The position numbers and the translations under genes are program-made. Below, piece by piece: positions 7,748 to 57,229 of a stretch of 64,000 nucleotides of DNA; positions within the stretch are counted from its first letter, which is position 1; each line of letters opens with the position of its first letter. The DNA comes from an uncultured Dehalococcoidia bacterium (GTDB lineage: Bacteria > Chloroflexota > Dehalococcoidia > Lucifugimonadales > CATOSD01): the NCBI GenBank assembly GCA_951812395.1, contig CATOSD010000001.1, forward strand, positions 1,211,108 through 1,275,107, read 5' to 3'. Under the pieces are notes generated by a model. That model was not told the origin of the DNA, did not search any database, and worked only from the letters and a program-made list of their open reading frames with translations.

Positions 7748-7805
7748 GTGACCGTCCGCCACGCCACCCCCATCCTAACCTTCCCCCTGCGAGGGGGAAG
7801 GGACT
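7748..7805 (+). repeat. family-1 REP-like hairpin repeat (ccccatcctaaccttccccctgcgagggggaagg)
   Basis: Intergenic. Perfect hairpin ccttccccc-tgcga-gggggaagg preceded by the conserved catcctaacc flank. Confidence 0.85.
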
Positions 7806-7821
7806 TTGAAAGGGCCATGCT

Positions 7822-10536: not shown

Positions 10537-10542
10537 TGGCGG

Positions 10543-10580
10543 GCACCCCCGTCCTAACCTTCCCCCTCGCAGGGGGAAGG
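10543..10580 (+). repeat. family-1 REP-like hairpin repeat
   Basis: cacccccgtcctaaccttccccctcgcagggggaagg, lying between the Mo-hydroxylase stop and the HicB-like start. Confidence 0.85.
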
Positions 10581-10595
10581 TGTTCTTGGTACTGG

Positions 10596-12851
10596 TTACT
10601 CCCCAGCCTCGGCGATCGCCTTGGACACGGCGCCAGGGTTCATCGGCAGGTTGGACATGCGGACGCCCGTCGCGTTGTGGACGGCGTTGGCTATTGCGGC
10701 CAGTGGCGGCACGATGTTGGCCTCGCCCACGCCACGCACTCCGTAGGGATGGCCGGGATTGAAGACTTCCACAATCACGCTCTCGATCATTGGCAGGTCG
10801 AGCGAGGTGGGCATCCGGTAGTCCAGCAGGCTGGAGTTCGCCATGGCGCCCTCGTCGTTCAGGTAGTACTCCTCGTTGATCGCCCATCCCACGCCCTGCG
10901 CGGTGCCGCCCTGGATCTGGCCCTCCACATAGCTTGGGTGAATCGCGAACCCCACGTCCTGGAACGCGGTAACTCGCAGAATGTCTATCTTTCCGGTGTC
11001 GGGGTCGACTTCGACGTCGATGATGTTTGCCGCGTAGGAGCCGCCTGACCCGCCCGGGTTCATGTTGGCGCGTCCGACCACGGGGCCGCCCGTCTGCGGC
11101 AGCACGCCAGCGACCTCCTCGAACGTCATGCTCAGCTCGGGGTCGGACGCGTGGCGCAGCGCGCCGTCCGCGTACTCCACCTGGTCGGGGGTCGTCTCCC
11201 AGAGTAGGGCTGCGCGCTCGATTAGCTGGCGCTTGACGTCGTTTGCGGCCTCGTAGGCTGCCCAGCCGGTCTTGAACGCTACGCCGCTGCCGCCGGTGTT
11301 GGACGTGTAGCCGATGGTGTCGGTGTCGGCGACCTGCGGGATCACGTTCTCGACCGGGATTCCGAGCACCTCGGCAAACTGCTGCGCCACCGCCGTGCGC
11401 GTGCCTCCGATGTCAACCGAGCCTTCGACCAGGCTGACGTTACCGTTCGAGAGTACGTTGGCCACCACGCAGGACATTCCGGTGTTGTTGCGGCAGAAGC
11501 CCATGCTGACGCCGCGCCCGCGGTTGGGGCCTTCGAGGGGCGTGTTGTAGTGCGGGTGGGCCTTGATGGCCTCCATAACCTCCTGGGCGCCGATGCGAAG
11601 GTTCATCACGCCGTCTGCACGGCGCGTGCCCTCTCTGGCCGCGTTCTGCAGGCGCAGGTCGACTGCGTCCATGCCCAGGCTTTCGGCCAACTCGTCCACG
11701 ACGCACTCGACAGCGAAGGCGACTATGGGCGCGCCGGGGGCGCGGTACGGCGACGTCTTCGGCTTGTTGTCGACCACGTCGTAGGAGTCTATCTGGACGT
11801 TTTCGATGTTGTAGGGCGCGAAGATGGCGGCGTTGGCGCCGGACAGCGGCGCGCCGGGATATGCGCCCGCCTCGAATGCGTAGTAGGCGTGCGCGGCCGT
11901 GATGCGGCCGTCGGTGGTTGCGCCGATCTTGATGCGCAGGTGCGCCCCTGAGGTGGGGCCGGTGGCCTCCATGACCTCGGCGCGGCTCATCGTAATCTTG
12001 ACGGGGTGGCCGCTCTTCTTCGAGAGCGTTGCCGCCACCGGCTCAAGGTAGGGGTTCAGCTTTCCTCCGAACCCGCCGCCAATCTCCATCGGAACTACTT
12101 TGATGTCTGAGACGGGTACGCCCAGCACCTTGGCGGTGCTGTCCCGAACGCCGAAGTGGCCCTGGCTGCTGCACCAGATCGTAAGCCTGTCGTTGGGTGC
12201 CCACCAGGCGGTGGCGTTCTGCGGCTCGATGTAACCCTGGTGGACGGTCTTGGTGCGGAACTCGCGCTCCAGCACCACGTCGGCCTGTGCGAAGCCGGCG
12301 TCCGGGTTACCGAACCTGTGCTGCTCGAAGCCCGCGATGTTGCGTCCCTCTGTGGAGTCGCCGCCGGGTGTGGGCCGATTCTCCCAGTGCTCGTGGAGAA
12401 CGGGCGCCCCTTCCCGCATAGCGTCCTCGACATTGGTGACCGCGGGCAGAGGCTCGTAATCGACGTCTATCAGCGCCAGCGCCTCTTCGGCGACGTGCGG
12501 GCTGCTCGCGGCCACGGCCGCCACAGGGTGGCCCTTGTAGAACACCTTGCCCTTGGCCAGGATGTTCTCGCTGATCGGTGAGCCGAGCACCGCCATCTGG
12601 GGCGTCGGGGGCGTGGGCGCCAGGTCTGCGGACGTAACCACCGCCAGGACTTCGGGGTGGGCCTCGGCTCTGCTGGTGTCTATGGACTTGATGCGGGCGT
12701 GGGAGTGCGGGCTGCGAAGCACCTTGCCGTGCAGCAGACCGGGCAGCCGCATGTCGGCGCCGTAGAGCGCCCTGCCCGTAACCTTGTCGACACCGTCGTG
12801 CCTGATGGGACGGGTGCCGACTACTTTATACTCTCTCGTTTCGGTGGCCAT
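10596..12851 (-). CDS. xanthine dehydrogenase/aldehyde oxidase/CoxL-family molybdopterin-binding large subunit
   Basis: 751 aa. N-terminal VVGTRPIRHDGVDKVTGRALYGADM and LHGKVLRSPHSHARIKSID. C-terminal GVGE...PP.AAIANAV. Confidence 0.9.
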   Translation of the reverse strand: MATETREYKVVGTRPIRHDGVDKVTGRALYGADMRLPGLLHGKVLRSPHSHARIKSIDTSRAEAHPEVLAVVTSADLAPTPPTPQMAVLGSPISENILAKGKVFYKGHPVAAVAASSPHVAEEALALIDVDYEPLPAVTNVEDAMREGAPVLHEHWENRPTPGGDSTEGRNIAGFEQHRFGNPDAGFAQADVVLEREFRTKTVHQGYIEPQNATAWWAPNDRLTIWCSSQGHFGVRDSTAKVLGVPVSDIKVVPMEIGGGFGGKLNPYLEPVAATLSKKSGHPVKITMSRAEVMEATGPTSGAHLRIKIGATTDGRITAAHAYYAFEAGAYPGAPLSGANAAIFAPYNIENVQIDSYDVVDNKPKTSPYRAPGAPIVAFAVECVVDELAESLGMDAVDLRLQNAAREGTRRADGVMNLRIGAQEVMEAIKAHPHYNTPLEGPNRGRGVSMGFCRNNTGMSCVVANVLSNGNVSLVEGSVDIGGTRTAVAQQFAEVLGIPVENVIPQVADTDTIGYTSNTGGSGVAFKTGWAAYEAANDVKRQLIERAALLWETTPDQVEYADGALRHASDPELSMTFEEVAGVLPQTGGPVVGRANMNPGGSGGSYAANIIDVEVDPDTGKIDILRVTAFQDVGFAIHPSYVEGQIQGGTAQGVGWAINEEYYLNDEGAMANSSLLDYRMPTSLDLPMIESVIVEVFNPGHPYGVRGVGEANIVPPLAAIANAVHNATGVRMSNLPMNPGAVSKAIAEAGE

Positions 12852-12945
12852 GTCTACTCCTTAGACGTGATGGATTCGTGGTCCGGGGCGGCGACGCGAG
12901 GCCGTTAAAGGCGCGTGGGCGCCGCGAAGCAATCTTATCATACCC

Positions 12946-13002
12946 GTCACCCCCATCCTAACGTTCCCCCTTCGAGGGGGATGGGGATTTAGGTGGGGAA
13001 GG
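12946..13002 (+). repeat. family-1 REP-like hairpin repeat (variant)
   Basis: gtcacccccatcctaacgttcccccttcgagggggatgggg, abutting the ggt stop codon. Confidence 0.8.
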
Positions 13003-13003
13003 C

Positions 13004-14746
13004 CTACACGCCGTAATCGACGTCCTGGCGGGCGGGGCCGCCGGAGATGCCGACGGGAGCGCCGTCGGCGCGCCAGCACGCCGCGCCTTGGATGAGGCCG
13101 GCGGCGTGGTCGAACATCACGCCGTTCATGCCGCCCGCCACGCGGGCCACCACGCTCACGTCGTGGCCCTTTGCCGCGAGCGCCTCACCGGTGGCAGCGG
13201 ACACGCCCTCCTCGACCTCCACCTGCTGCCCCTGCGTCCAGATTCGTGGCGCCTCAACCGCTTCCTGGAGGGTCATGCCGTGGTCAATGACGTTCACGAT
13301 GGCCTGGAGCACGGACGCGAAGATGCGGGCGCCGCCGGGGGCGCCCAGGGCGAACAGCGGGCGCCCGTCCTGAAGCACGACGGTGGGCGACATGCTGGAG
13401 AGCATTCGCTTGCCCGGCGCGATCGAGTTGGCGGTGCCCGGGTGGGGGTCGAATATGTACATGTTGTTGTTCAGCAGCATTCCGGTGCCGGGCACGGTCA
13501 CTTTGGAGCCGAACGCCTCGTGAATGGTCTGCGTCATGGAGACGACGTTGCCGTCGCCGTCGGCCACTGTGAAGTGCGTGGTGTTGTTGGACTCCCCGAG
13601 CACCGCCGTAACCTCGCCCGGGGCGTAGGGGCGGGCGCGGTCCAGGTCGATTTCCGCCCTTCTGCGGTCGGCGTAACTTTTGGACGTGAGCCACTCGACG
13701 GGCACCTCTACGAAATCGGGATCGCCGAGGTACTCGAACCGGTCCGCAAATGCTATTTTGAGCACCTCTGCCAGTATGTGCGCGGACTGGCCGGCGCCAA
13801 AGCCCATCGCACCCACGTCGAACCCTTCCAGGATATTGAGAGCCTGGACTATGTGAACGCCGCCGGAACTGGTGGGACCCACCGCCACTATGTCCCGTCC
13901 GCGATAGTTGCCCCGCACCGGCTGGCGGTACTTGAGCTCGTAGCCGCGCAGGTCTTCCAGCGTGATGATGCCGCCGTTCGTGCGCATGTCCTCGGCGACG
14001 GTGCGACCGAGTTCGCCGCCGTACAGCTCGTCCGCGCCGTTCTCGGCTATGCGCCGCAGCGTGTGGGCGTAGTCCCTGCGCAGGATGGTCTGGCCCACGG
14101 CGGGAGGCTCGCCGTGGGGGAGGAACACCTCTTTCGTGGCGGGGAAACGCGCCAGATCTTCCTGGTTGTCGGCGATGATTTTCACCAGGTAGGCGCTCGC
14201 CGGAAAACCCCTGTCGGCGTAGCGAATGGCCGGCTGGATAACGGTGTCGAGGTCGAGCCTGCCGTATCTCTCCACGAGGTGGCACCAGCACTTGAGATTG
14301 CCGGGCACGCCCACCGCCAGGTATCCGAGGCGGTTCTTGCGTCCGGCGGCCTCCAGGTAGTCGGGCCAGGTGTTTGATACCGGCTCGTACATGCGATCGG
14401 TCGCCGCGGCGGGTGCGACGGCGTAGTTGTCTATGGTTATGGACTCGCCGGAGGATGCGTCGTGGTAATTCACCATGCCGGCGCCGAAGATGCCGACCAT
14501 CATCGGCTCTACCACGGTGAGGGCGAACGCGGTTGCCACGGCGGCGTCCACGGCGTTGCCGCCCATAGACAGAATCTCCGCGCCCGCGGCCGAGGCCATG
14601 GGGTGGTTGGAAGACACCATGCCGCGGGAACCGGCGGCGGCCCGTTTAAGTGGGACGAATGGACTGCCTGCACGCTCGCGCCAGCCGTTGTTCACGTGGA
14701 CACCTCGTATGTGGAGTATTGTGTGCCGATTGTACCATACGGGCAT
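13004..14746 (-). CDS. ggt: gamma-glutamyltranspeptidase
   Basis: 580-aa ORF. Motifs: GGNAVDAAVA, TTHFTVADGDGN (autoprocessing Thr), SSMSPT. The true start may be the internal ATG at 14620 (MVSSNHPMAS). No signal peptide is visible. Confidence 0.9.
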   Translation of the reverse strand: MPVWYNRHTILHIRGVHVNNGWRERAGSPFVPLKRAAAGSRGMVSSNHPMASAAGAEILSMGGNAVDAAVATAFALTVVEPMMVGIFGAGMVNYHDASSGESITIDNYAVAPAAATDRMYEPVSNTWPDYLEAAGRKNRLGYLAVGVPGNLKCWCHLVERYGRLDLDTVIQPAIRYADRGFPASAYLVKIIADNQEDLARFPATKEVFLPHGEPPAVGQTILRRDYAHTLRRIAENGADELYGGELGRTVAEDMRTNGGIITLEDLRGYELKYRQPVRGNYRGRDIVAVGPTSSGGVHIVQALNILEGFDVGAMGFGAGQSAHILAEVLKIAFADRFEYLGDPDFVEVPVEWLTSKSYADRRRAEIDLDRARPYAPGEVTAVLGESNNTTHFTVADGDGNVVSMTQTIHEAFGSKVTVPGTGMLLNNNMYIFDPHPGTANSIAPGKRMLSSMSPTVVLQDGRPLFALGAPGGARIFASVLQAIVNVIDHGMTLQEAVEAPRIWTQGQQVEVEEGVSAATGEALAAKGHDVSVVARVAGGMNGVMFDHAAGLIQGAACWRADGAPVGISGGPARQDVDYGV

Positions 14747-14763
14747 TTATCTCAAAGTTCATC

Positions 14764-14793
14764 TTGACACATTTCACGATACTGATTTATTCT
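14764..14793 (+). promoter_or_regulatory. candidate sigma70-type promoter for the His-rich ORF (TTGACA-N18-TATTCT)
   Basis: Lies in an AT-rich 100-bp intergenic stretch. The -35 is perfect and the -10 matches 4 of 6. Confidence 0.4.
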
Positions 14794-14844
14794 GAGATTT
14801 AGGGATTAAATCATCACATGCTTTTTGTTTGAAGGAGGATCTCC

Positions 14845-15051
14845 ATGCCGCACGACCAGCACGAATGTGACGCGCACGAGCACCACGGCGGACCGGGCCA
14901 CGTTCACGATCCCCACGAGTGCGACGACCATGAGCACCACGGGCACGACCACGACCAGCACGAGTGTGACGAGCACGAGCACCACGGCGAGCCCGGGCAC
15001 GTCCACGACCCCCACGAGTGCGACGACCACGAGCACCACGGGCACTCCTAA
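14845..15051 (+). CDS. His/Cys/Asp-rich small metal-binding protein (internally duplicated)
   Basis: 68 aa with 24 His and 4 Cys, all Cys in HECD motifs. A 31-aa unit is repeated twice, at 14854-14946 and 14953-15045. Strong RBS gaAGGAGGatctccATG. It sits upstream of a CDF transporter. Confidence 0.75.
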   Translation: MPHDQHECDAHEHHGGPGHVHDPHECDDHEHHGHDHDQHECDEHEHHGEPGHVHDPHECDDHEHHGHS

Positions 15052-15070
15052 CTCTACCTAGCGTCGGCGG

Positions 15071-15100
15071 GTTGAGAGCGTGCTTCGGCACCTTCTCAAC
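15071..15100 (+). other. stable hairpin with UUCG tetraloop downstream of the His-rich ORF
   Basis: gttgaga-gc-gtgc-ttcg-gcac-ct-tctcaac. No trailing U-tract, so it is not a canonical intrinsic terminator. Confidence 0.5.
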
Positions 15101-15122
15101 TCGCTTCACAATTCCTCCGCAA

Positions 15123-15171
15123 CCCTTGGGATTTGCACGTCTTGCACCCTATTGCGTGGAAATCCAAAGGG
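15123..15171 (+). promoter_or_regulatory. 12-bp imperfect inverted repeat enclosing TTGCAC direct repeats, upstream of the CDF gene
   Basis: Arms are cccttgggattt and aaatccaaaggg, with one mismatch. The loop holds TTGCAC-N3-TTGCAC-N4-TTGCGT. Candidate operator or RNA structure. Confidence 0.35.
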
Positions 15172-15389
15172 TGTGCACGTGTCCGGGCAGTCGTCGGCAA
15201 GGGCTTCGCCAGTAGGCCCATTCCGCCACCTTCCCTAGTGATACCTCCATCGAGGGGCAGAAAGTGAGACTGGACAGGATGCTAAATGTCAGGCGCTCCC
15301 TCCAGGAATTGCTATCGTCCCTGAGGCCCACTCCGGCCCTACGCATGAGCGCGGCAGGCCCCGTTCGAATTGGTTCCAACCACCTCTAC

Positions 15390-16571
15390 ATGGCATCCTC
15401 CGGTAGGCAGGAAGGACACGGTCACAACGGCCACAGCGACCATGACGACCATGGTCATAATGGGCATAGCGGCCAGGATCGCAACGGCCATACCGGCCAC
15501 GACCATAACGGACATGCCGCTCACGACGACCACGGTGACCATGAGGGCCACGACCACGACGGAGATGATGACCACGAGGGCCACGACCACGGCGGGCACG
15601 ACCACAGCGGGCACGATCACCAAGACGAGCTGAGATTCGCCAGCCGGAGAAGCCTGGTCATCGGCCTTGTGCTTATCTCGACCTATATGTTCGTCGAGAT
15701 TGTCGGCGGCGTGCTGTCCGGCAGCCTGGCGTTGCTGGCGGACGCCGGTCACATGGCGACCGACGGGGCGGCCATCGCGCTCGCTCTGCTGGCCATGTGG
15801 CTTGCCGACAAAGGCCCCACGGCAGAGCGCACGTTCGGCTTCTACCGCACCGAGATTCTGGCCGCGCTTTTCAACGCCGTCAGCCTGTGGGTCGTCGCCG
15901 GCTACATCCTCTTCGAGGCCTACCACCGCTTTGTAGACGTGCCGCACATCGAGGGCGTGCTGATGATGGTGGTCGGCGTCGGCGGCCTTGTAATCAACAT
16001 CATCACTGCCTGGGTGCTGCACGGCGCATCCCAGCACAGCCTGAACGTGGAAGGCGCGTTCCAGCACGTCCTCGGCGACCTGCTCGGCTCGGTCGCGGTG
16101 GTCGTCTCCGGCATATTCATTCTCACGCTGGAATGGTACATAGTCGATCCCATTCTAAGCGTGTTGATAGCGCTGTTCATCGTCTACAACACGCGCCACC
16201 TGGTTCGCAAGATTGCGGTAGTGCTGGTGGAAGGCACGCCCCCGCACATCGACCTATACGAGCTGTTCGACAGCCTGGAGGACGTGGAGGGCGTCACCAT
16301 CGTACACGACCTGCACGTGTGGACGATTTCGTCGGGCTACGACGCGCTGAGCACGCATGTGCTGGTGGACCGTAACTACCACGGCGGCTTCGACGCACTG
16401 CTGGACGCGCTGCGAGAGGTGATCAAGGGCGAGTACGGCATTACTCACGTTACCGTGCAGATGGAGTACTCGACCACGGAGTGCGACGAGGCCCACCCGC
16501 CGTGGAGCCTGCTCACCGAGAAGCGGCTGGCCCGCGCCGAGAGGCTGCTGGGGCCGGATGCCGCGGGCTGA
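15390..16571 (+). CDS. cation diffusion facilitator (CzcD/ZitB-type) transporter with long His-rich N-terminal tail
   Basis: The conserved TM core begins at LVIGLVLISTYMFVEIVGGVLSGSLALLADAGHM. About 80 N-terminal residues are GH/DH repeats. ATG 15390 was chosen as start; the ORF is open from 15264. Confidence 0.9.
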   Translation: MASSGRQEGHGHNGHSDHDDHGHNGHSGQDRNGHTGHDHNGHAAHDDHGDHEGHDHDGDDDHEGHDHGGHDHSGHDHQDELRFASRRSLVIGLVLISTYMFVEIVGGVLSGSLALLADAGHMATDGAAIALALLAMWLADKGPTAERTFGFYRTEILAALFNAVSLWVVAGYILFEAYHRFVDVPHIEGVLMMVVGVGGLVINIITAWVLHGASQHSLNVEGAFQHVLGDLLGSVAVVVSGIFILTLEWYIVDPILSVLIALFIVYNTRHLVRKIAVVLVEGTPPHIDLYELFDSLEDVEGVTIVHDLHVWTISSGYDALSTHVLVDRNYHGGFDALLDALREVIKGEYGITHVTVQMEYSTTECDEAHPPWSLLTEKRLARAERLLGPDAAG

Positions 16572-23328: not shown

Positions 23329-23413
23329 TGCCGAAGGTCGGAGTCGAACCGACACGGGATTTAACTCCCAACGGTTTTTGAGACCGCCGCGTCTACCATT
23401 CCGCCACTTCGGC
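23329..23413 (-). tRNA. tRNA-Leu (anticodon CAA)
   Basis: Reverse complement reads GCCGAAGTGGCGGAATGGTAGACGC...GGT-CTCAAAA-ACC... with a long variable arm, T-arm GTCGGTTCGACTCCGAC and acceptor CTTCGGCA. Folded by eye. CCA is not encoded. Confidence 0.88.
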
Positions 23414-23488: not shown

Positions 23489-23537
23489 CGATGCGGAATG
23501 ACCGCATTAGATTCCTCGGCTGCGCTCGGAATGACAC
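23489..23537. repeat. family-2 small repeat (cggaatgac...attcctcggctgcgctcggaatgac)
   Basis: Matches the motif gtcattcc-agcg-a-gc-gaggaat also seen at 30919 and 57293. Confidence 0.6.
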
Positions 23538-23655
23538 GGTGGGGCGCCGGTTGGGATGGCACACCTGGGCGTCGGCTCGGATGGCACACGTGGGCCCCGG
23601 CTGGGATGGCACACCTGGCGCCGGCTCGAATGGCACACCTGGCGCCGGCTGGGGA
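23528..23655. repeat. tandem array, 5 copies of a 25-bp unit (consensus GGATGGCACACCTGGCGCCGGCTCG)
   Basis: Unit starts at 23530, 23555, 23580, 23605 and 23630. There are no unique spacers. Confidence 0.85.
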
Positions 23656-27853: not shown

Positions 27854-27976
27854 TTCGCCTCCGGTAACAGCGAAAATCGGCCTCGAGTGCAGGTTGGCCT
27901 AGCCTGGCACAGGCATTAGTTACTTATTTCACAGAGCTTATCATCTCGCGCCAGGCAAGTCAATTCAGAGTCTGTG

Positions 27977-28625
27977 TCAGATTACCAGGCGCCCCCAAAA
28001 GCCATCTCCCTTGCCAAAACCTGCCCCGGAGCCCAACTCTGAACCTACGACCATCGCCTTGACGCTGTGGAGCCAATGTCCCCCTGCTAACGCCCCAACG
28101 TACCCCCCTGCCGCTCCCCCTCGCCCAAACCCGACCCCTTCGCTACCCGGCACCCCGAAAGAAACCGTCACCTTCCCGCGCCGCCCGTGTTCTGGCCCTA
28201 CCCCACACAAGTCCTGCGCTCGCCAAACCACGCCCCCAGGTCTGCGCAATTTCTCCCCACCGTTCCGGCCAAATCCCGCAATCTCGCCCGTTACTGTTCA
28301 GACTTCGTGAGTGTCACGAGCCCCTCCCTACTTTTCGCCACGCCCTCTTGCAATAGCCGCACATACGTGCTAACCTCGTCCAGGCGAAGGACAGACCCCG
28401 CGGCCCGGAATCCCTACACGCAATCGGGATTATTCCACAGGCATTCGTAGGGGCGTCGATAACTGGCCTCCGGTCACCGGCCACCGACCCCCCTGTCCTA
28501 GTCTGTCACGCGGCGCGACACTTGTGCTCAGATATCCCGCGCTCGGCATTACAGATTCGCGCAGGAACGCCGGCACTCCCAGCTAAGAACACAACACAAT
28601 GTCGCAGAAACAAACAGAATTCGCT
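27977..28625 (+). repeat. large dispersed non-coding element, copy A
   Basis: Collinear blocks are shared with the reverse complement of 47873-48420. Examples: aaaccgtcacNNtcccgcgcc, caatttctccccacc, gcacatNcgtgct, gaccccgcggcNcggaa, accggccaccg, ctgtcacgcggcgNgacactt, cattacaga, aatgtcgcagaaacNaacaga. No conserved ORF. Confidence 0.8.
28358..28386 (+). promoter_or_regulatory. promoter-like module TTGCAA-N17-TAACCT with GCAC-ATAC-GTGC palindrome filling the 3' end of the spacer
   Basis: The same geometry recurs at 48153-48181 (minus strand), 57365-57393 and 34748-34776. Confidence 0.5.
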
Positions 28626-28698
28626 TTCCCTCTTTCGCTGGGACAGCAGTTGGGGGGCGCCGAATAAACTGAAACACGATCGTCAATTCAAACGGCGC

Positions 28699-28727
28699 TT
28701 GACACGGCTGTTCTGCCTTGGTACACT
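28699..28727 (+). promoter_or_regulatory. lexA promoter candidate TTGACA-N17-TACACT
   Basis: Near-consensus hexamers with a 17-nt spacer, 54 nt upstream of the lexA ATG. Confidence 0.6.
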
Positions 28728-28731
28728 TTGC

Positions 28732-28745
28732 CGAACATTTGGTCA
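28732..28745 (+). promoter_or_regulatory. candidate SOS box CGAACATTTGGTCA just downstream of the lexA -10
   Basis: Matches 11 of 14 positions of the Gram-positive/Dehalococcoides-type consensus CGAACRNRYGTTYC, as I remember it. Confidence 0.3.
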
Positions 28746-28780
28746 AGTTACGTATTGTACGTGCGCAATGGGGGTGACAC

Positions 28781-29428
28781 ATGGCAAAAGGCAGAGTTTC
28801 CGCGAGGCAACAGCGGATTCTGGAATTCATCCGCGACTTTCTGGTCGAGCACCACTACCCGCCAACCGTCCGAGACATCCAGACGGGCTGCGAGGTCAGC
28901 TCCACCTCGGTGGTCGACTACAACCTCAAGATTCTGCATCGCGAGGGTTACCTGAAACGCTACGCCGGTGTGTCCCGTGGAATCGAGCTGACGGACGGCT
29001 GGAGCGGCATACCCGGCCCCGAAATCCTACGCGTTCCGGTTCTCGGCAGCATCGCCGCGGGCGACCCGCTTCCCACGTTCGCCTCGGACATTCCCACCGA
29101 CGACGACTACGAGAACGTCGAGATCCCCCCGTCGCTCACCAATGGCAGGTCGGACGTCTACGCTCTCAGGGTAAAGGGCACCTCGATGATCGATGCCCTC
29201 GTCGCGGACGGCGACCTGGTGCTGCTCGAGCCGGTGGGGCAGCCAGAAAACGGCGACATGGTGGCGGCGTGGCTCTTGAACGACGAAGAGGTCACGCTGA
29301 AGCGTTTCTACCTGTATGGCGACACGGTCAGGCTGCAACCCGAGAACGAGACCATGGCGCCAATCGACCTGCCGGCGGACCAGGTGGCCGTCCGCGGTCG
29401 CGTCATCGGAGTGTTCCGCACGCTGTAG
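28781..29428 (+). CDS. lexA: LexA repressor
   Basis: 215 aa. Winged-helix N-terminus (RQQRILEFIRDFLVEHHYPPTVRDIQ). Cleavage site region VLGSIAAGDP. Ser/Lys peptidase motifs VKGTSM and VTLKRF. Confidence 0.95.
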   Translation: MAKGRVSARQQRILEFIRDFLVEHHYPPTVRDIQTGCEVSSTSVVDYNLKILHREGYLKRYAGVSRGIELTDGWSGIPGPEILRVPVLGSIAAGDPLPTFASDIPTDDDYENVEIPPSLTNGRSDVYALRVKGTSMIDALVADGDLVLLEPVGQPENGDMVAAWLLNDEEVTLKRFYLYGDTVRLQPENETMAPIDLPADQVAVRGRVIGVFRTL

Positions 29429-34547: not shown

Positions 34548-34747
34548 TCCTCGAAACCTCCGTTTGAGTGCGAAACAGTATAGTTTTGCACCACCGTACA
34601 GTCAACAAGCCGGTCAATAGGGAAGATGTGTCAAGTTACTAGGTGCGCGAGAAATCTCCTTCCCGTGCGAGCCGGAATCCGGGAGGGCCAGGGCCTCCCT
34701 GTGTTGTACGCCTGGTAGTCTGAGGCAGGCCAACTCTCAATCCCCCA

Positions 34748-34776
34748 TTGACACTCCAGCACATGCGTGCTGCTCT
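34748..34776 (+). promoter_or_regulatory. promoter-like module TTGACA-N17-TGCTCT with GCAC-ATGC-GTGC palindrome
   Basis: Same -35, 5 nt, 12-nt palindrome, hexamer geometry as at 28358. The -10 is poor. Confidence 0.35.
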
Positions 34777-38043: not shown

Positions 38044-38088
38044 AGTCCCTTCCCACTTGATGGGGGAAGGCTAGGTTGGGGGTGACGG
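38044..38088 (-). repeat. family-1 REP-like hairpin repeat (reverse orientation)
   Basis: agtcccttccc-acttgat-gggggaagg-ctaggttgggggtgacgg. Confidence 0.8.
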
Positions 38089-38183
38089 CCCCCTGTCCAA
38101 GACCACGTTTGTTCTTGACGCCAACCCCCTCTTGAACTCGCGTGCCAGATTGCGGCCAGCACACCCATCAGAACGGGTTGAAT

Positions 38184-44147: not shown

Positions 44148-45380
44148 ATGATTCTTCTCGTTCGCAACTCCAAGTTCCGACTGCTCTGGGTCGCCGGCCT
44201 GTTCAGCGACGTGGCCATCACGCTGTACATCCTGGCGCACGGCTGGTTGGCCCTGCAGGTCACCGACTCGGCGTTCTGGGTGGGCGCGACCGCCGGAATG
44301 GCCGGGCTGGGCATGATGCTGTGCGCCGGTTTCGCGGGAGTGATGGCCGACAGGCTGGACCGCCGCGTGCTGTTCATCGTCTCCCAGGCGGCGCAGGCGG
44401 CCATTTTCGCCGGCGTCGCGGTGCTGGTGTTCACCGACCGCATCGAGCTTTGGCAGATACTGGCGACGGCGCTCGCGGACGGCATCCTCATGGCCGTCAA
44501 GCTGCCGGCGCGCATGACGCTGGTGCTGGACGTTGCGGGCCGCGAGAACCTGCTCAAGGCGAACGCTGCCAACTTCGTCGCCATGACCATCGCCGGCATC
44601 ACCGTGCCGCTGCTGGCCGGCCCGGTCGTGGACACGTTCGGCATCGGCTGGATTTATGCCGTCATGGTCGGAGCGCTTGCGTTGTCCGGCGTGTTGATGG
44701 TGTTTCTGCGCGGCTTCGGGACTTCGGGTCGGAAGCGGGAAACCTCTCCGCTTGCCGACCTGAAGGAGGGCGTTCGCTTCACGCTGGGCACGCCCCAGAT
44801 TCGCATCCTCATCCTGATGATGCTGTCGTCTGAGGTGTTCGGATGGTCCCACGAGACGATGCTGCCGGTTATGGCGGGCAAGGTTCTGGACGTCGGGCCC
44901 ACGGGGCTGGGTTACATGTTCTCGGCGGGCAGCGCCGGCGCGCTCATTTCGTCGCTCACGCTGTCGGCGCTCGGCGAGGGGCGCAGCGCGGGCCGGCTGC
45001 TGGTGTTCGGGTACATGGGCTTCGGCGCGTTCCTGATGCTGTTCGCGGCGTCGTCCTGGCTGCCGCTCTCGCTTGTGCTGCTGCTGGCGGCCTACGGATC
45101 GGGCGTTCTCTACGAGGCTACGCTGATCACTGTGCTGCAGCGGGCGGTGCCCCACGACATGCGTGGTCGCGTGCTGAGCATTCAGTCGTTCACCTGGGGC
45201 ATGACAGGGTTCTCCGGATTCTACACCGGAAGCATAGCCACCCTGCTGAGCGCCCCCGTAGCGATAGCCATAGGCGGCTCGGTGCTGGCGTTGAACGGAC
45301 TGCGGGTGTCGCGGCGGGTAATCCGCTTGTACTCCATCGCCACTGCCCAGACCGAGCCTGCCCAGGCGGACACTCCCTAA
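44148..45380 (+). CDS. MFS transporter (EntS/DUF894-like)
   Basis: 410 aa, about 12 TM segments. N-terminal RNSKFRLLWVAGLFSDVA and GVMADRLDRR. Confidence 0.85.
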   Translation: MILLVRNSKFRLLWVAGLFSDVAITLYILAHGWLALQVTDSAFWVGATAGMAGLGMMLCAGFAGVMADRLDRRVLFIVSQAAQAAIFAGVAVLVFTDRIELWQILATALADGILMAVKLPARMTLVLDVAGRENLLKANAANFVAMTIAGITVPLLAGPVVDTFGIGWIYAVMVGALALSGVLMVFLRGFGTSGRKRETSPLADLKEGVRFTLGTPQIRILILMMLSSEVFGWSHETMLPVMAGKVLDVGPTGLGYMFSAGSAGALISSLTLSALGEGRSAGRLLVFGYMGFGAFLMLFAASSWLPLSLVLLLAAYGSGVLYEATLITVLQRAVPHDMRGRVLSIQSFTWGMTGFSGFYTGSIATLLSAPVAIAIGGSVLALNGLRVSRRVIRLYSIATAQTEPAQADTP

Positions 45381-45422
45381 GTCCCTTCCCCTAGCATGGG
45401 GAAGGCCAGGATGGGCGTGAGG
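45381..45422 (-). repeat. family-1 REP-like hairpin repeat (reverse orientation)
   Basis: gtcccttcccc-tagca-tggggaagg-ccaggatgggcgtgagg, starting right after the MFS stop codon. Confidence 0.8.
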
Positions 45423-47213: not shown

Positions 47214-47233
47214 TGTCTTGCCGGTGCGCGGCT

Positions 47234-47313
47234 GTCACCCCCATCCTAACCTTCCCCCTGCGAGGGGGAAGGGACTTTCGAATCCTGACCTTCCCCTGCG
47301 AGGGGGAAGGGAC
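47234..47313 (+). repeat. family-1 REP-like repeat, two tandem hairpins
   Basis: gtcacccccatcctaaccttccccctgcgagggggaagggac, then ctgaccttcccctgcgagggggaagggac. Confidence 0.9.
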
Positions 47314-47330
47314 TATTGGAAAAAACCCCC

Positions 47331-47741: not shown

Positions 47742-48152
47742 GTTGGTCGGACCTCCATTGTGGTTGCGACAGATGATAGTACAAAGCGCGCGCGATTCCA
47801 ACCGGCGGGCCTAGCGCGCTGCCCGCACCGCCATCTCGTTGCCTCACATCGTGATCCCTTCGAATGCGTCGGGGCGAAATCTGTTAGTTTCTGCGACATT
47901 CTGTTGTATTCGTAGCTGGGGGCGCCGGCGGTTCTGCGCAACTCTGTAATGCTGGCGTGGGCAATTCGGGGCAGAAGTGTCACGCCGCGTGACAGAGTGG
48001 GACAGGGGCCGGTGGCCGGTTTTCGACGCCACAGGGCACCCACAAGGGACGCCCGTACGGATGCCTGGGGCATTGTCCCTATTGGGGGTAGGGTTTCCGC
48101 GCCGCGGGGTCGGTCCCTCGGGCGGGTTTGAAGCCCGCACCTAACATGAGCG

Positions 48153-48181
48153 ATAATAGCACGGATGTGCGTGCAATACAA
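48153..48181 (-). promoter_or_regulatory. promoter-like module TTGTAT-N17-TATTAT with GCAC-ATCC-GTGC palindrome (minus strand)
   Basis: Points toward the DUF35/thiolase operon. Same geometry as at 28358. Confidence 0.5.
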
Positions 48182-48388
48182 GACAGATGGCGAGATTGCC
48201 GTCTGAAGCCGGATTGGTGGGGAGAAATTGAGCAGGCGCGGGGATGAGATTGGGCGTTCGTGGGGTTCGGATGGAGCACGGCCGGGGCACGGGTGGCGCG
48301 GGAGAGTGACGGTTTTTTTGGAGTACGAGGGGCGAATGGGGTCGGGCGTGGGCCAGAGGGCGCGTTCGGGGGGCATGGCTCTACGCGC

Positions 48389-48417
48389 TTGCCATCCCCC
48401 ACAACCCCCACTAGAAT
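48389..48417 (+). promoter_or_regulatory. TTGCCA-N17-TAGAAT promoter, 6 nt upstream of ATG 48424 (leaderless-type)
   Basis: Hexamers and spacing seen directly. No Shine-Dalgarno is possible in the 6 nt. Confidence 0.6.
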
Positions 48418-48423
48418 CCGCCA

Positions 48424-49782
48424 ATGAGCTCGCTTTCCAAATCCGGCCTTCCGCGTTGGCCGTCCTGGGCGGGCGGCAGCGACTTCCAGGGCCGCGCCGG
48501 GTCCGCCATCACGCACCCCGCGACCGTCGCGGCGCTGGGCGTGCTGTTGCTGAACGACCTGCTGTTCAAGTCGCTGTGGCCCCACTGGTGGCTCACCGGC
48601 AAGCTCAGCGACCTCGCGTGGGTGGTGTTCGCGCTTCCACTGCTGGCGTTCCTGCTTTCGTTCGCCGCGCGGCGGAACGTCCGCGCCTGCCGCCTGGCGT
48701 TCGTCGCAGCCTACGTTGGTCTGCCGCTCCTCTACGCCGCGTTCAACACGTTCGAGCCGGTGCACGACGTGATCATGCGCGGCATCTCGCTCGCGGGCGG
48801 CGCCGCCGGCTCCCCTCGGGACGCGACAGACTCGCTGGTCATCCCGCTCGCGTGGGGTGCGGCGCTGTGGGTATGGCGGAGGGAGGTGCCCGCTGCGGGC
48901 GCGATGCGGCTGCGGTGGGCGGTGCTGGTGGCGGGGGTGGCGGCGCTGGCGAGCGTGGCGACGAGCGAAAGTGGGCCAGTCTATGGTGTGCAGAGGATCG
49001 GCGTTTCTCATGACGGACTGGTTGTCGCCGACGTCGACTACGGTGGATTCTGGAGCCTGGACGGCGGCTTGACCTGGAACCCTATTGAACACCAACTTGG
49101 TGATATTGCTTGGGGAGATCAAGATGTGGAAACGCCCAGGGGCCGCTACATACTCGATGGGCCGCGTGTGCTGCGGGTCAGTGCCGACGGCGCCAAGGAA
49201 GAGGTCGTCTACTCCGCCGAGTACCTGAAACAGGACGGTAACGTCTGGGTCCAAACGGTCTCTACTGAGAGTCTCGGACGGCGAAGTATCGGAACCCAAC
49301 CGGTGGCGATGGTCTACGACGAACGGAGCGGCAATCTTGCGCTGGCAATGGGTATCCAGGGTGTGGTGGTCGGAACGCCAGATGGCCAATGGGTCCCCAG
49401 AACCGTAGCGCAATTCAAACCTACTGACTTCTCGCTCGAGACGAAGACACGGCTTTTGCTATTTGACTTCGATTTCCACACCTCAGTACTGATACTTGCC
49501 TTGGCGATGACAGGAGCAGCCTTCATAGCCTCCCAGCATAGGCGACAAGATTTGCTGAGGAGCGTACTCATTGCTCCCATCGCAGGAATTGCGGCAATGT
49601 TTATGGTGGGCACTCTTTTCTTGCTTCCTCTATATCTAGCACTCTTTGTTCCGCCGGTATCTAACGTACCTCAGACCGTCATAGTGCTCCTGGTGGTTCC
49701 ACTCGGATCGGGCTTCGTCATAGGCTCGGAAGCGCGACGAAGCGAATTTTGGAACATCGGCGTGATGGAGTTGGAATACTAG
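48424..49782 (+). CDS. multi-TM protein with central Asp-box (BNR) region, paralog 1 (N-terminal part of a split gene?)
   Basis: 452 aa. The first ~168 aa are nearly identical to the ORF at 50767. Asp-box SLDGGLTW at 49054-49077. The C-terminus has TM helices. Confidence 0.7.
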   Translation: MSSLSKSGLPRWPSWAGGSDFQGRAGSAITHPATVAALGVLLLNDLLFKSLWPHWWLTGKLSDLAWVVFALPLLAFLLSFAARRNVRACRLAFVAAYVGLPLLYAAFNTFEPVHDVIMRGISLAGGAAGSPRDATDSLVIPLAWGAALWVWRREVPAAGAMRLRWAVLVAGVAALASVATSESGPVYGVQRIGVSHDGLVVADVDYGGFWSLDGGLTWNPIEHQLGDIAWGDQDVETPRGRYILDGPRVLRVSADGAKEEVVYSAEYLKQDGNVWVQTVSTESLGRRSIGTQPVAMVYDERSGNLALAMGIQGVVVGTPDGQWVPRTVAQFKPTDFSLETKTRLLLFDFDFHTSVLILALAMTGAAFIASQHRRQDLLRSVLIAPIAGIAAMFMVGTLFLLPLYLALFVPPVSNVPQTVIVLLVVPLGSGFVIGSEARRSEFWNIGVMELEY

Positions 49783-50657: not shown

Positions 50658-50731
50658 CCAAGTGTCGGGTTGTCAGTCTCCTCTCCCTCGAGAGCGAGTT
50701 GAGTCAGAATGGGGGTGAAGAGCCCCCACGC

Positions 50732-50760
50732 TTGCCATCCGCCGCACACGCGCCTAGAAT
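50732..50760 (+). promoter_or_regulatory. TTGCCA-N17-TAGAAT promoter, 6 nt upstream of ATG 50767 (leaderless-type)
   Basis: Duplicate of the 48389 promoter. Confidence 0.6.
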
Positions 50761-50766
50761 CCGCCA

Positions 50767-52518
50767 ATGAGCTCGCTTTCCAAATCCGGCCTTCCGCGTT
50801 GGCCGTCCTGGGTGGGCGGCGGCGACTTCCGGCGCCGCGCGGAGTCCGCGCTGACGCATCCCGCCACCGTCGCGGCGCTGGGCGTGCTGTTGCTGAACGA
50901 CCTGCTGTTCAAGGCGCTGTGGCCCCACTCGTGGCTTACCGGCAAGCTCAGCGACCTCGCCTGGCTGATACTCGCACTGCCGCTGCTTGCGTTCCTGCTC
51001 TCGTTTGCCGCCCGCGGCAGCCTCCGTGCTCGCAGGTTGGCGTTCCTGGTCGCCTACGCGGGGTTGCCGCTCCTCTACGCCGCGTTCAACACGTTCGACC
51101 CGGTGCACGACCTGATCATGCGCGGCATCTCCCTCGCGGGCGGCGCCGCCGGTTCCCCTCGCGACGCCACGGACTCCCTCGTCATCCCGCTCGCGTGGGC
51201 CGCGGCGCTGTGGGTGTGGCGGCGGGAGGTGCCCGCTGCGGGCGCGATGCGGCTGCGGTGGGCGGTGCTGGTGATGTGCTTTGCTGCGCTTGCGATAGGG
51301 TCGTCGTGTGAGAGAGAGCCGCTGTATGGGGTCAAGAGAATCGGCGTTTCCGGCGATGGAGCAATTGTCGTAGAGGCCGAATACGGCCCGTTCAAAAGCG
51401 TAGATGGCGGCATGACATGGAACACGAGTGAGGGGCTGTCAGGACCAGTTCATTGGGGCGGCGGAAGCGCGGATACTCCGTGGGGTCGTTTCGTGATCGA
51501 CGGCCCGCGTGTGGTCAGCGTAGGCGACGACCGAGTTGTCTACTCGACAGAGTACCTAGCAAGGGACGGCAACTTGTGGGTACAGAAGGTGTCGACTGAA
51601 AGGTTGAATTCGACGAGAGAGATTTCCCTCACTCCGAGAGGAATCGCATTTGACGACCAAAGTGGCAACTTGGTGCTGGCCCTGGGAATACAGGGAGTCG
51701 TGGTTGGGGCAGCCGACGGGGAGTGGCGGGCCATCGCCGTAGGCCCATTTGAACCGACCGAGTTTTCGTTAACTGGTAAGACGCTACTGCTGGTGACTGA
51801 TCTCAAGTTTTGGACGGCGACTTTGGCTCTAGCACTCTCCATGACTGGGGTCGGACTCATAGCATCCCGGTACCCGTGGCGGGTCTTACGGTGGTCGGTT
51901 CCTACCGCGCTGCTGTCAACAATCATGGCTATAGTGCTTTTGGTCAACATAGTCACGGGACCGAGGAATTCAATAGGAGACACCTTTGGCCTGCTCATCG
52001 CGCTATGTGTGCCCTTTGGTCCAATCGTGGTAGCCATTGCAGTCGACTCGACGCCCCGATACGGAAACATCCGGGCCCTGGCATCAATCAACGTTGCCGT
52101 TTTCCCACTTCTGGCCTCTGTAGTACTACTCTTCGCTTTCGGCTATTCAGACGACGAGCGCGGCGGAATCTCCGATCTCCTCATTTATGCTGTTTCGATA
52201 CTGGCCTATTTCCTAGTGGTTGTGTCGCTGTTGGTGTCCTGGGATCGGCTCAGGCGCTGGCCTCTGGTTATAGCGTCAGTTGCTGGCATGACGGTGCTCG
52301 TCACTCTAGTGTTCATGTTGTGGTTGCACCTGAGCGTCGATGAAATTGTGACCAAGTCCGCTACGGTCGCGCTATGCGGAGTCGCAGCTGGCATTCTTGC
52401 CGGATACATAGGTCACACAACTCCGGTGGAAGTGGGGTCATGCTCAACCTGCGGAAGTTTCGTTTTGGCTTCAGAAAGGCAGTGTAACGATTGCGGAGCG
52501 TTGCAAACTCAAGACTGA
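50767..52518 (+). CDS. multi-TM protein with central Asp-box region and C-terminal zinc ribbon, paralog 2
   Basis: 583 aa. Asp-box SVDGGMTW. C-terminal ribbon CSTCGSFVLASERQCNDCGA. Confidence 0.75.
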   Translation: MSSLSKSGLPRWPSWVGGGDFRRRAESALTHPATVAALGVLLLNDLLFKALWPHSWLTGKLSDLAWLILALPLLAFLLSFAARGSLRARRLAFLVAYAGLPLLYAAFNTFDPVHDLIMRGISLAGGAAGSPRDATDSLVIPLAWAAALWVWRREVPAAGAMRLRWAVLVMCFAALAIGSSCEREPLYGVKRIGVSGDGAIVVEAEYGPFKSVDGGMTWNTSEGLSGPVHWGGGSADTPWGRFVIDGPRVVSVGDDRVVYSTEYLARDGNLWVQKVSTERLNSTREISLTPRGIAFDDQSGNLVLALGIQGVVVGAADGEWRAIAVGPFEPTEFSLTGKTLLLVTDLKFWTATLALALSMTGVGLIASRYPWRVLRWSVPTALLSTIMAIVLLVNIVTGPRNSIGDTFGLLIALCVPFGPIVVAIAVDSTPRYGNIRALASINVAVFPLLASVVLLFAFGYSDDERGGISDLLIYAVSILAYFLVVVSLLVSWDRLRRWPLVIASVAGMTVLVTLVFMLWLHLSVDEIVTKSATVALCGVAAGILAGYIGHTTPVEVGSCSTCGSFVLASERQCNDCGALQTQD

Positions 52519-53942: not shown

Positions 53943-53980
53943 ACCTTCTGCCTCACAAGTCCCTTGCCCCTCGCTCGATA

Positions 53981-54024
53981 GTCCCTTCCCCCTTGCAGGG
54001 GAAGGTTAGGATGGGGGTGACGGT
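53981..54024 (-). repeat. family-1 REP-like hairpin repeat (reverse orientation)
   Basis: agtcccttccccc-ttgca-ggggaagg-ttaggatgggggtgacgg. Confidence 0.85.
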
Positions 54025-54030
54025 CGCTCC

Positions 54031-56388: not shown

Positions 56389-57219
56389 ATGCTGCGAAAC
56401 ACCTTCCTGCACCTGCCCGGCGTCGGCTACAAGTATGAGCGGCTGCTGTGGGAGTCGGGCGTGCTGACGTGGGAGGACTTTCTGAGCGCGCCGTCGCTGC
56501 CGTCCGCGCTGGACGGACGCAGAGACCGGCTGAGGCGGCTGGTCGAAGAGTCGGTCGCCCGCCAGGAAACGGGAAACGCGGCCTACTTCGCGAGAGCGCT
56601 GCCGCCCCGCGAGGTGTGGCGGCTGTACGCGGACTACCGTAACAGCGCGGCGTTTCTGGACATTGAGACGACCGGACTTTCGCCTTACTCAAGCTACCTG
56701 ACGCTGGTGGGCATACTGGACCGTGACGGCTACCGCGGATTCGTGCGCGACGATAACCTGCTCGATTTGCGAGAGGCGTTGGAGCAATACGACCTGGTGG
56801 TCACGTACAACGGCGCGAGCTTCGATCTGCCCTACGTGGAGCACACGTTCGGCAGCGTGTTCAGGCACGTCGCGCACCTGGACCTGATGTATCCGCTGCG
56901 CCGGCTCGGCTACGGCGGAGGACTGAAGCACATAGAGGCTCGGCTGGGCGTGGGGCGTCCGTCGGAGCTGAGCGGGCTGAGTGGATACGACGCGGTGCGT
57001 ATGTGGCGCATGTGGACGATGGGCAGCGCCGGCGCGCTCGATACGCTGGTGCGCTACAACGCCGAGGACGTGGCGTCGCTGCCCGCGCTGGCCGACCTGG
57101 TGTACAACAGATCTGCCGAGAAGCTCTGGCCGGACCTTCCACGGGTCGAACCGTCCCCACGCCACGACATCGACCTGCCATACGACCCGGCCATAGTGGC
57201 GGCGCTGACCCGGGCCTGA
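56389..57219 (+). CDS. RNase H-like fold exonuclease (YprB/RNase_H_2-like) with N-terminal HhH-like segment
   Basis: LHLPGVGYKYERLLWESGV, then FLDIETTGLSP...VTYNGASFDLPY (exonuclease motifs I and II). Confidence 0.7.
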   Translation: MLRNTFLHLPGVGYKYERLLWESGVLTWEDFLSAPSLPSALDGRRDRLRRLVEESVARQETGNAAYFARALPPREVWRLYADYRNSAAFLDIETTGLSPYSSYLTLVGILDRDGYRGFVRDDNLLDLREALEQYDLVVTYNGASFDLPYVEHTFGSVFRHVAHLDLMYPLRRLGYGGGLKHIEARLGVGRPSELSGLSGYDAVRMWRMWTMGSAGALDTLVRYNAEDVASLPALADLVYNRSAEKLWPDLPRVEPSPRHDIDLPYDPAIVAALTRA

Positions 57220-57229
57220 GAGCATGACC

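Follow-up and report, generated by a model that had tools for sequence, protein, structure and literature searches.

Why is the region between the divergent cupredoxin and lexA genes of an uncultured Dehalococcoidia bacterium filled by a long sequence that carries no credible gene and recurs, as its reverse complement, elsewhere on the same contig? The locus lies in a 64,000-nt stretch of contig CATOSD010000001.1 (GenBank assembly GCA_951812395.1, forward-strand positions 1,211,108 to 1,275,107), hereafter called the window, to which all coordinates refer. An earlier note, made from the sequence alone, described the element upstream of lexA (copy A) and its counterpart (copy B, 47874–48373, reverse strand) as copies of a dispersed noncoding element that could either be transcribed, as a structured RNA or long leader, or serve as a mobile promoter cassette. 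Our analysis favors a mobile promoter cassette that carries a long leader, and not a structured RNA: copy A is probably (we would put it at about 0.78) a non-autonomous, promoter-carrying element of the DDE type with terminal inverted repeats (TIRs), which captured the 5′ region of a terS-like (phage small-terminase-like) gene and inserted upstream of the lexA −35 hexamer.

Copy A Has the Termini and Empty Sites of a Transposon

Copy A, whose ends we set on an alignment of the 20 best copies, spans 27968–28681 on the forward strand (714 bp, 61% GC, top strand C-rich), and nhmmer searches with it find homology in many related loci from window positions ~27965 to ~28685. The repeat reported in the earlier note is real, while its limits are not those first drawn (27977–28625 for copy A, and 48420 instead of ~48373 for the end of homology in copy B). 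The element is bounded by TIRs of 29 bp each, at 27968–27996 and 28653–28681, which are complementary to each other at 21/29 positions. The left TIR (GAGTCTGTGTCAGATTACCAGGCGCCCCC, forward strand) matches the family consensus GAGCCTGTTTCAGATTACCAGGTGCGCCC at 25/29 positions, and the right TIR (reverse strand; GGGGGCGCCGAATAAACTGAAACACGATC as read on the forward strand) matches it as its reverse complement at 21/29. In the 20-copy alignment, the family consensus reads GAGCCTGTTTCAGATTACyAGGTGCGCCC ... GGGGGCACCwGGTAATCTGAAACAGGCTC, with 9-bp target-site duplications (TSDs) outside it. Around copy A the same 9-mer, GTCAATTCA, stands on both sides (27959–27967 and 28682–28690) without a mismatch.

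Empty sites were found through the loci of LexA proteins 90% (L092) and 86% (L094) identical to the LexA of the window. Both loci share the gene order of the window (ATPase-YceI-cupredoxin / lexA / AI-2E), and their cupredoxin/lexA intergenic region measures 206 bp versus 927 bp in the window. A single GTCAATTC(A/G) lies exactly at the junction, at which the window has GTCAATTCA, the 714 bp of the element, and GTCAATTCA again. Because of the TIRs, the perfect TSD, and the empty sites in two related genomes, we regard copy A as a MITE-like (miniature inverted-repeat transposable element-like) non-autonomous transposon; the earlier note had seen no terminal inverted repeats and no likeness to any insertion sequence (IS) or MITE, a view that these three observations overturn. 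The reciprocal case exists as well: at locus L012, an element with the TSD CAGGGGAGC fills a site whose syntenic counterpart in the window (10538–14872, 84%–87% identical) is empty.

Both TIRs are present in 17 copies at unrelated loci, with element lengths of 658–786 bp and flanks that are unrelated in sequence to one another. The TSD is perfect or has one mismatch in 7/17 of these copies; the duplications include GTCAATTCA, CAGGGGAGC, CGCGGGCGC, TAGCAGTTG/TAGCAGTCG, and CCGTCTGTA/CCGTCTATA, and the orthologous copies L058 and L076 have CGGCGCCAA/CGGCGCCCA and CGGCGCCAA/CGGCGCCGA, respectively. Together with multiple copies, insertion polymorphism, and the lack of an internal transposase, these are the hallmarks of a MITE. 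No transposase open reading frame (ORF) lies between the TIRs of copy A, so the element is not an autonomous IS. Furthermore, a gene caller based on GC content at third codon positions (GC3) places zero genes between 27854 and 28780, in agreement with the absence of a credible ORF noted earlier; indels between copies break reading frames, and copy A keeps only a residual ORF of 22 codons. The missing gene call and the frame-breaking indels rule out a protein-coding reading of copy A.

Copy A is a cut-and-paste or copy-and-paste element, MITE-like or, by its size, a mobile insertion cassette (MIC), that was presumably transposed in trans by a transposase supplied from elsewhere. It inserted between two divergent promoters, that of the cupredoxin gene and that of lexA, with its right end 17 bp from the lexA −35, and duplicated the 9-bp target.

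The Interior Resembles the 5′ Region of an Orphan terS-like Gene

Inward from the left TIR, a left arm (27997–28145, forward strand, as are all parts of copy A described in this section) is restricted to TIR-bearing copies, and copies that lack the left TIR begin sharply at about window position 28146 (CCCCGAAAAAACCGTCAC...). The upstream region that follows (28146–28347) is common to some terS-like gene loci in a 23-copy alignment, including L011, in which the terS-like gene is intact; an insertion of ~52 nt private to copy A (~28289–28341) disrupts any shared reading frame. Next comes a promoter-like module at 28348–28376, with the −35 hexamer TTGCAA (28348–28353), a 17-nt spacer, and the −10 hexamer TAACCT (28371–28376). 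The spacer of copy A holds the palindrome GCACATACGTGC (28359–28370), and TGn precedes the −10. All retrieved copies share the layout cTTGAAnnnnnc-GCACATCCGTGC-TAcCCT, followed by GGGACCGACCCCGC. Downstream of the module lies a leader (28385–28598) composed of a GGACAGACCCC box (28390–28399), a variable hairpin, and conserved blocks, and then a start-region remnant (28580–28667) with a degenerate Shine-Dalgarno (SD) sequence, an ATG at 28599–28601, and the 22-codon ORF. Three tandem 10-bp units, ACACAACACA / ATGTCGCAGA / AACAAACAGA, occupy 28589–28618.

A second motif, CAGCTAgGA...ACAGAATG...CAGAA...ACAG, stands 210–320 nt downstream of the module in ~75/86 copies and leads to the source of the cargo. 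There is a shorter sub-family without the TIRs and the upstream region, in some loci of which the sequence past this 3′ motif runs on into an ORF. The ATG within "...ACAGAATG..." opens a helix-turn-helix protein of 131–136 aa that is intact in ten related loci, and a leader of ~190–260 nt, homologous to that of copy A, is kept ahead of the intact genes. Because that ATG opens an intact gene elsewhere, the ~250 nt conserved after the promoter are read as the 5′ untranslated region (UTR), the SD sequence, and the first codons of the gene. The protein matches the PHROG small-terminase family phrog_2538 (E = 5.6e-10) and, below the cut-off, Pfam HTH_Tnp_1_2 (E = 1.2e-5); a PDB sequence search with its profile returned only uninformative HEAT/alphaRep-like repeat matches to the C-terminal helix pair. 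Its family is small (64 clusters) and unnamed. A second ORF of 100 aa (ORF2), which matches no family, follows the terS-like gene with a TAG/GTG overlap.

The relatives of this protein in IMG/VR are genuine terS genes, followed by genes for the large terminase subunit (TerL) and the portal protein. In Dehalococcoidia chromosomes, the terS-like genes have host-gene neighbors (e.g., an FGGY kinase) and no TerL, portal, or capsid genes, and with ORF2 they form orphan terS-like operons. We rejected a prophage packaging module at the intact loci, given the host-gene neighbors and an ORF2 without a family, and likewise an IS66 TnpA/TnpB-like identity for the gene pair, for which the NCBIfam match is sub-threshold (E = 0.0096) and no TnpB/TnpC is present. 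Homology between paralogues reaches from ~150 nt upstream of the promoter through the end of ORF2, and the 64-kb window contains no intact terS-like gene. Copies A, B, and C (57210–57634, forward strand) are truncated derivatives of the terS-like 5′ region, and the cargo consists of the upstream region, the promoter with its palindrome, a leader of ~200–250 nt, the SD sequence, and the first codons within three 10-bp units.

The tandem units have the consensus ATGnnnCAGA in ~70 copies, with a within-copy identity of 6.6/10 versus 3.0 in shuffles. In several paralogues, their variable core changes in concert within a copy and differs from one paralogue to another (three times GGAACA in L011, GACCCA in L036, GTGCAA in L009, and GGGGCA in L086). 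The units overlap the SD sequence and start codon (e.g., L011 3810–3845) and place ATGs in all three frames. They look like helically phased, iteron-like binding sites, possibly for the TerS-like protein itself.

The module has the features expected of a σ70-type promoter, with a −35, a TGn-extended TAnnnT −10, and a GCAC-N4-GTGC palindrome in the spacer. A scan finds no terminator-like site between it and lexA. The promoter is presumably active and would read out through the terminator-free right end, adding a further start site for transcription, besides their own promoter, to host genes such as lexA, uvrA, nrdR, fur, relA, ftsH, dxs, and rpsF; by way of the operator-like palindrome, a single regulator could control every promoter of the family. 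It is unlikely that the GCAC-N4-GTGC palindrome is the LexA box of this lineage, as the lexA promoter has, on our reading of the sequence, a GAAC-N4-GGTC box. This box, GAACATTTGGTC (28733–28744), lies just 3′ of the lexA −10, has one mismatch to the Gram-positive-type SOS box GAAC-N4-GTTC, and is conserved in the empty-site genomes. The comparison suggests that the LexA box of the lineage may differ from the palindrome of the element.

Family Members Point Their Promoter into Host Genes

The core that copy C has in common with the other copies was made into a pattern and scanned over one genome per GTDB species. The pattern matched 83 stretches, all in Dehalococcoidia metagenome-assembled genomes (MAGs; ~12 of them), with the highest load, ~27, in one 4.1-Mb genome. 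Within the genomes sampled, the family is restricted to a single clade of uncultured Dehalococcoidia; the window alone holds four copies.

For 52/54 orphan copies, the first gene called within 700 nt downstream runs in the direction of the internal promoter, and after orthologous sites are collapsed, 35 independent co-oriented gene clusters stand against 2 exceptions (35/37). In the copies that survive, the internal promoter is thereby shown to face the 5′ end of a host gene read in its own direction. The genes downstream include dxs, uvrA, ftsH, nrdR, fur, rpsF, lpd, and those for a RelA/SpoT HD-domain protein, a 5′-3′ exonuclease, and an RNB-domain RNase; the copies in the window face lexA (copy A), a ChsH2/DUF35-type gene (copy B), and the gene of a YifB/ComM-like ATPase (copy C).

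Insertion Sites Lie at a Fixed Distance from Host −35 Hexamers

The pre-existing lexA promoter (28699–28727, forward strand; TTGACA-17-TACACT, TG-extended, called by the promoter scan) is also present in the empty sites L092 and L094, and its −35 begins 17 nt from the right terminus of copy A. This distance recurs in the family. The sequence outside the right terminus is non-homologous between copies, yet a σ70-like promoter is found again and again 16–17 nt away: the best promoter match falls at offset 16/17 in the right flanks of 10/19 independent sites (binomial P = 1.6e-9), a count that reaches at most 6 in 2000 shuffles, and the mean promoter score peaks sharply there. Left flanks, looking outward, have their peak at offset 16 (6/14), one of these promoters being that of a divergent tRNA gene in L057. 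Over 33 independent flanks, matches to TTGACA at 5/6 positions or better occur eight times at offset 16, twice at offset 17, and five times at all other scanned offsets together. The integration site, on either side, is the 9-bp TSD plus 7–8 bp from the −35 hexamer. Furthermore, family promoters in L036, L052, and L062 are preceded by TIR-like ends at a distance of 16–17 nt, and a mini-MITE at 34625–34731 likewise lies 16 nt upstream of a family promoter (TTGACA at 34748).

A candidate cupredoxin promoter (27935–27963, reverse strand; TTGACT-17-TAAGCT) has a −35 that overlaps the target GTCAATTCA, and because of this overlap, copy A seems to have landed between two back-to-back divergent −35 hexamers.

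The 16–17-nt spacing could arise from target recognition, whether of the sequence or of the polymerase, or from selection for the spacing. A bolder proposal is that the transposase picks its targets by reading promoters, through the −35 hexamer or bound σ70/RNA polymerase, sets the terminus 16–17 bp upstream, and so builds a regulon; we consider this speculative and rather doubtful. If it were true, transposition would spread one regulatory module, a palindrome-bearing promoter with iteron-like repeats, to dozens of housekeeping and DNA-repair genes, with lexA, uvrA, nrdR, comM/yifB, fur, relA, ftsH, and dxs among the recipients. Should the spacing reflect target choice, the transposon would colonize compact genomes without hitting genes while rewiring their transcription, including that of the SOS repressor gene lexA. 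In the literature that we searched on Dehalococcoidia MITEs and on promoter-targeting bacterial IS, neither this family nor a spacing of this kind is described.

Points against the Promoter-Carrying Element and Rival Explanations

Several observations weigh against a promoter-carrying MITE upstream of lexA. A generic promoter scanner misses the module of copy A, whose weak −10 matches at 3/6 positions, and the activity of the promoter is a prediction. The search pattern itself accounts for part of the apparent conservation of the module; the palindrome arms are intact in 3/4 copies found independently of the pattern (only four such copies). The gene calls behind the orientation count come from our home-made GC3 caller, which on checking in the window recovered most known genes and missed some. 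Typical MITEs are usually <500 bp and AT-rich (PMC10969869); copy A (714 bp), like the family as a whole (658–786 bp), exceeds that length, and its 61% GC departs from the norm, so we call it MITE-like or MIC-like and not a textbook MITE. One or both TIRs are missing in most family copies, many of which lack the left one, and copy C sits in an insertion without a TSD, so that some copies fall beyond TIR-mediated transposition. Finally, no autonomous partner has come to light: no TIR pair lies >920 bp apart among 91 loci, an 18-mer TIR scan of JGI metagenome contigs gave 14 matches that are all due to chance (the best, L103, falls inside a coding sequence of a 40%-GC contig), and IMG/VR viral contigs scanned with the TIR and with the module gave 0 matches.

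A rival explanation is a selfish and inert repeat, a MITE whose internal promoter brings the host no benefit. Its orientation and spacing would then reflect only the target preference of the transposase and the removal by selection of copies with antisense transcription into neighboring genes. We hold this to be possible but unlikely. The TTGACA offset motif occurs on either side of the element (10/19 right, 6/14 left), so insertion may be orientation-neutral and the bias may have come later; the downstream genes are functionally heterogeneous and have kept their own promoters, and copies A and B show decay at their ends. Selection against antisense read-out, however, itself needs an active internal promoter, the orientation bias is very strong (35 versus 2), and the module, leader, and start region are still recognizable in old copies whose TIRs have decayed (copy B, L054, and L046). 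Copying of an intergenic region by plain segmental duplication or gene conversion, with no mobile element, would suit copy C, with its missing TSD, copy B, which has no TIRs and next to which a duplicated block starts at 48386, 13 nt past the end of homology at 48373, and the many copies that lack a left TIR. It may account for some of the TIR-less copies, but copy A is refuted as such by its TIRs, perfect TSD, and precise empty sites, and 17 copies with both TIRs stand at unrelated loci between unrelated flanks; as an account of the family, it is the least credible of those considered here.

Two further explanations look to the conserved interior. A structured noncoding RNA gene or riboswitch-like leader would owe its ~250 conserved nt to a functional fold, and several features speak for it: conserved blocks alternate with variable or indel segments, a local hairpin is maintained with differing sequences in most copies (z < −1 in 22/34 distinct copies; mean z = −1.5), the leader of copy B folds moderately better than its shuffles (z = −2.46), and a leader is retained ahead of the intact terS-like genes. 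That of copy A, on the other hand, folds no better than shuffles (z = −0.40), and for 38 leaders over 306 columns RNAalifold gives −9.6 kcal/mol and 19 pairs with 0 compensatory changes, in an alignment that is not structure-aware and from which weak structure may escape. Thus, of the stem that had seemed to covary between copies A and B, the local hairpin of variable sequence stands and the compensatory pairing does not. The Rfam search that the earlier note had proposed gave no match at E ≤ 10 over 27900–28800, and at the gathering score only two tRNAs, both elsewhere, in the whole window. Moreover, the middle of the leader is swapped wholesale between families and is not constant even at the orthologous loci L019 and L011, an SD sequence plus start codon makes up the best-conserved 3′ block, and homology also reaches 180–390 nt upstream of the promoter, up to the TIR. 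A structured RNA gene is not supported, and we find it improbable that the element is anything of this kind and not mobile DNA. In phages, TerS recognition sites are located in or next to terS, as in lambda (the cosB R sites), SPP1, and P22. The copies could by analogy be dispersed pac-like sites or operators for a TerS-like protein, serving packaging initiation or titration, with the 10-bp units as the binding sites; the concerted, non-random triplets in ~70 copies and the adjacent homologue of phage small terminases are in line with this. No packaging or structural genes accompany the chromosomal terS-like genes, however, the window has no terS-like gene at all, the units are least regular in the TIR-bearing family of copies A and B, and the orientation bias is left unexplained, which together make this explanation highly improbable.

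Comparison with Known Systems

MITEs that carry promoters, and the concept of mobile promoters, are already known. Established examples are Correia elements (CREE/NEMIS, Neisseria), MITEAba12, BrickBuilt, and QMITE1, whose σ70-like promoters can drive neighboring genes, as was shown for Correia and uvrB (PMC10969869). Our promoter-carrying MITE-like element resembles these in being non-autonomous, in its TIRs and target duplications, in its many intergenic copies, mostly upstream of genes, and in its σ70-like promoter. It differs from Correia elements (~100–200 bp) in being 4–6 times longer (658–786 bp) and GC-rich and in its 9-bp TSD, and a sequence relationship is not expected; furthermore, its interior is a captured terS-like 5′ region, whereas theirs are IS-end remnants. 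In the literature searched, we found no promoter-bearing MITE with termini fixed 16–17 nt from a −35 hexamer. Putative mobile promoters (PMPs), which are defined by similarity within −150 to −50 and whose vehicle is unknown (Matus-Garcia, Nijveen & van Passel 2012; PMC3575422), are likewise ~70%–90% identical upstream sequences before unrelated genes in one genome, proposed as a route of regulatory rewiring (PMC3575422). In the present case, the vehicle (TIRs, TSD, and empty sites) is identified, and so is the gene that donated the promoter. The family stands out in three respects: its promoter has an identifiable origin, in the 5′ region of an orphan phage-terminase-like gene; nearly every copy faces into a host gene; and the ends of the copies are fixed 16–17 bp from the host −35.

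MICs, in ISfinder terminology, are TIR-bounded, transposase-less, larger than classical MITEs, and carry whole passenger ORFs. Our element shares their TIRs, their lack of a transposase, their size, and a passenger unrelated to transposition, and differs in that its passenger is limited to regulatory sequence and the truncated beginning of a gene. Among long terminal repeat (LTR) retrotransposons, Ty3 inserts at RNA polymerase III start sites and Tf1 at RNA polymerase II promoters, tethered by contacts between integrase and transcription factors. Here the likeness is one of mechanism and not of membership: the insertion point keeps a short, constant distance, on the upstream side, from a site recognized by the transcription machinery, and coding sequence is spared. 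The candidate causes in the present family differ, being recognition of TTGACA, recognition of RNA polymerase/σ, or selection after insertion; if promoters were indeed read as targets, the family would offer a bacterial parallel to the promoter targeting of Ty3/Tf1. Phage terS genes with recognition repeats (the lambda cosB R sites, SPP1 pac) recall our donor gene in their homology and in the helically phased direct repeats at the start. The chromosomal genes differ in being orphan (the terS-like gene plus the 100-aa ORF2, with no TerL or portal), and a packaging role is hypothetical here. For the annotation of Dehalococcoidia MAGs, the family accounts for a large group of "conserved intergenic" sequences that annotators would otherwise wrongly take for noncoding RNAs.

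Other Family Copies and Repeats in the Window

Copy B is an old copy without recognizable TIRs. By blastn, 28103–28624 (forward) aligns with 48373–47874 (reverse) at 70% identity over 535 nt (E = 1e-53), and MAFFT and an inverted-repeat finder (I1–I3, with arms of 154, 131, and 73 nt) reproduce the collinear blocks first seen by eye. On the reverse strand, its promoter module lies at 48181–48153 (TTGTAT-17-TATTAT, palindrome at 48170–48159) and its ATG remnant at 47899–47897. The extra hairpin that had been reported in copy B, GCGGG-cttcaaa-CCCGC (48138–48122), is real; it is a sub-family insertion right after the −10 that recurs in ~11 other copies. Its site is syntenic with those of L054, 81% identical across the element, and of L046, which retains an intact right TIR 16 nt from a host promoter orthologous to that of copy B. 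Copy B is therefore an old, orthologously conserved insertion that predates these species and whose ends have since decayed. The duplication that starts at 48386 presumably removed its left end. This direct repeat (48386–48685 versus 50729–51028; 300 nt, 87% identity) covers the upstream 40 nt and the N-terminal coding parts of two paralogous membrane-protein genes without a Pfam match (48424–49782 and 50767–52518).

Copy C belongs to the minimal-leader family and is part of a 425-bp insertion, with its module at 57365–57393, its palindrome at 57376–57387, and a 3′ motif that ends at ~57585 (forward strand). Its partial match to the family (57339–57416) covers nothing beyond the promoter-like module and a GAGGGACTGACCCC box. 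On the right, the inserted sequence runs directly up to the −35 (TTGACG) of the YifB/ComM-like gene. The empty site in L111, an intergenic region of 58 bp, confirms the insertion and the absence of a TSD. A second short palindromic repeat, GTCATTCC(t/g)AGCG(a/t)AGCCGAGGAATc, occurs at 57295–57322 and in L033, L037, L042, and L048, and adjoins several family copies.

The fourth family member (34625–34776, forward strand) consists of the ~107-bp mini-MITE, which is little more than degenerate left and right TIRs as read from its ends, and, 16 nt past it, a strongly diverged family module, TTGACA (34748–34753)-ctcca-GCACATGCGTGC (34759–34770)-TGCTCT. Traces of the family leader extend to ~35020; nhmmer did not detect this copy.

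The window also holds repeats of other kinds. A repetitive extragenic palindromic (REP)-like repeat (…CACCCCCATCCTAACCTTCCCCCTgcgAGGGGGAAGGGACT…) is found intergenically in both orientations at 7762–7807, 10544–10586, 12944–12990, 38044–38090, 45380–45420, 47228–47316, and 53975–54027. In other genomes, one sub-family of the element carries insertions of this unit in its leaders, and the MITE in L012 landed within such a repeat. Imperfect tandem or direct repeats with periods of ~24–48 nt, rich in CAC/GAC/CAT (families D2 and D3), fill 14841–15633, and 4–5 tandem copies of the 25-nt unit GGCGCCGGyTsGgATGGCACACcTGG occupy 23514–23642, ~100 nt from a tRNA gene (23329–23413).

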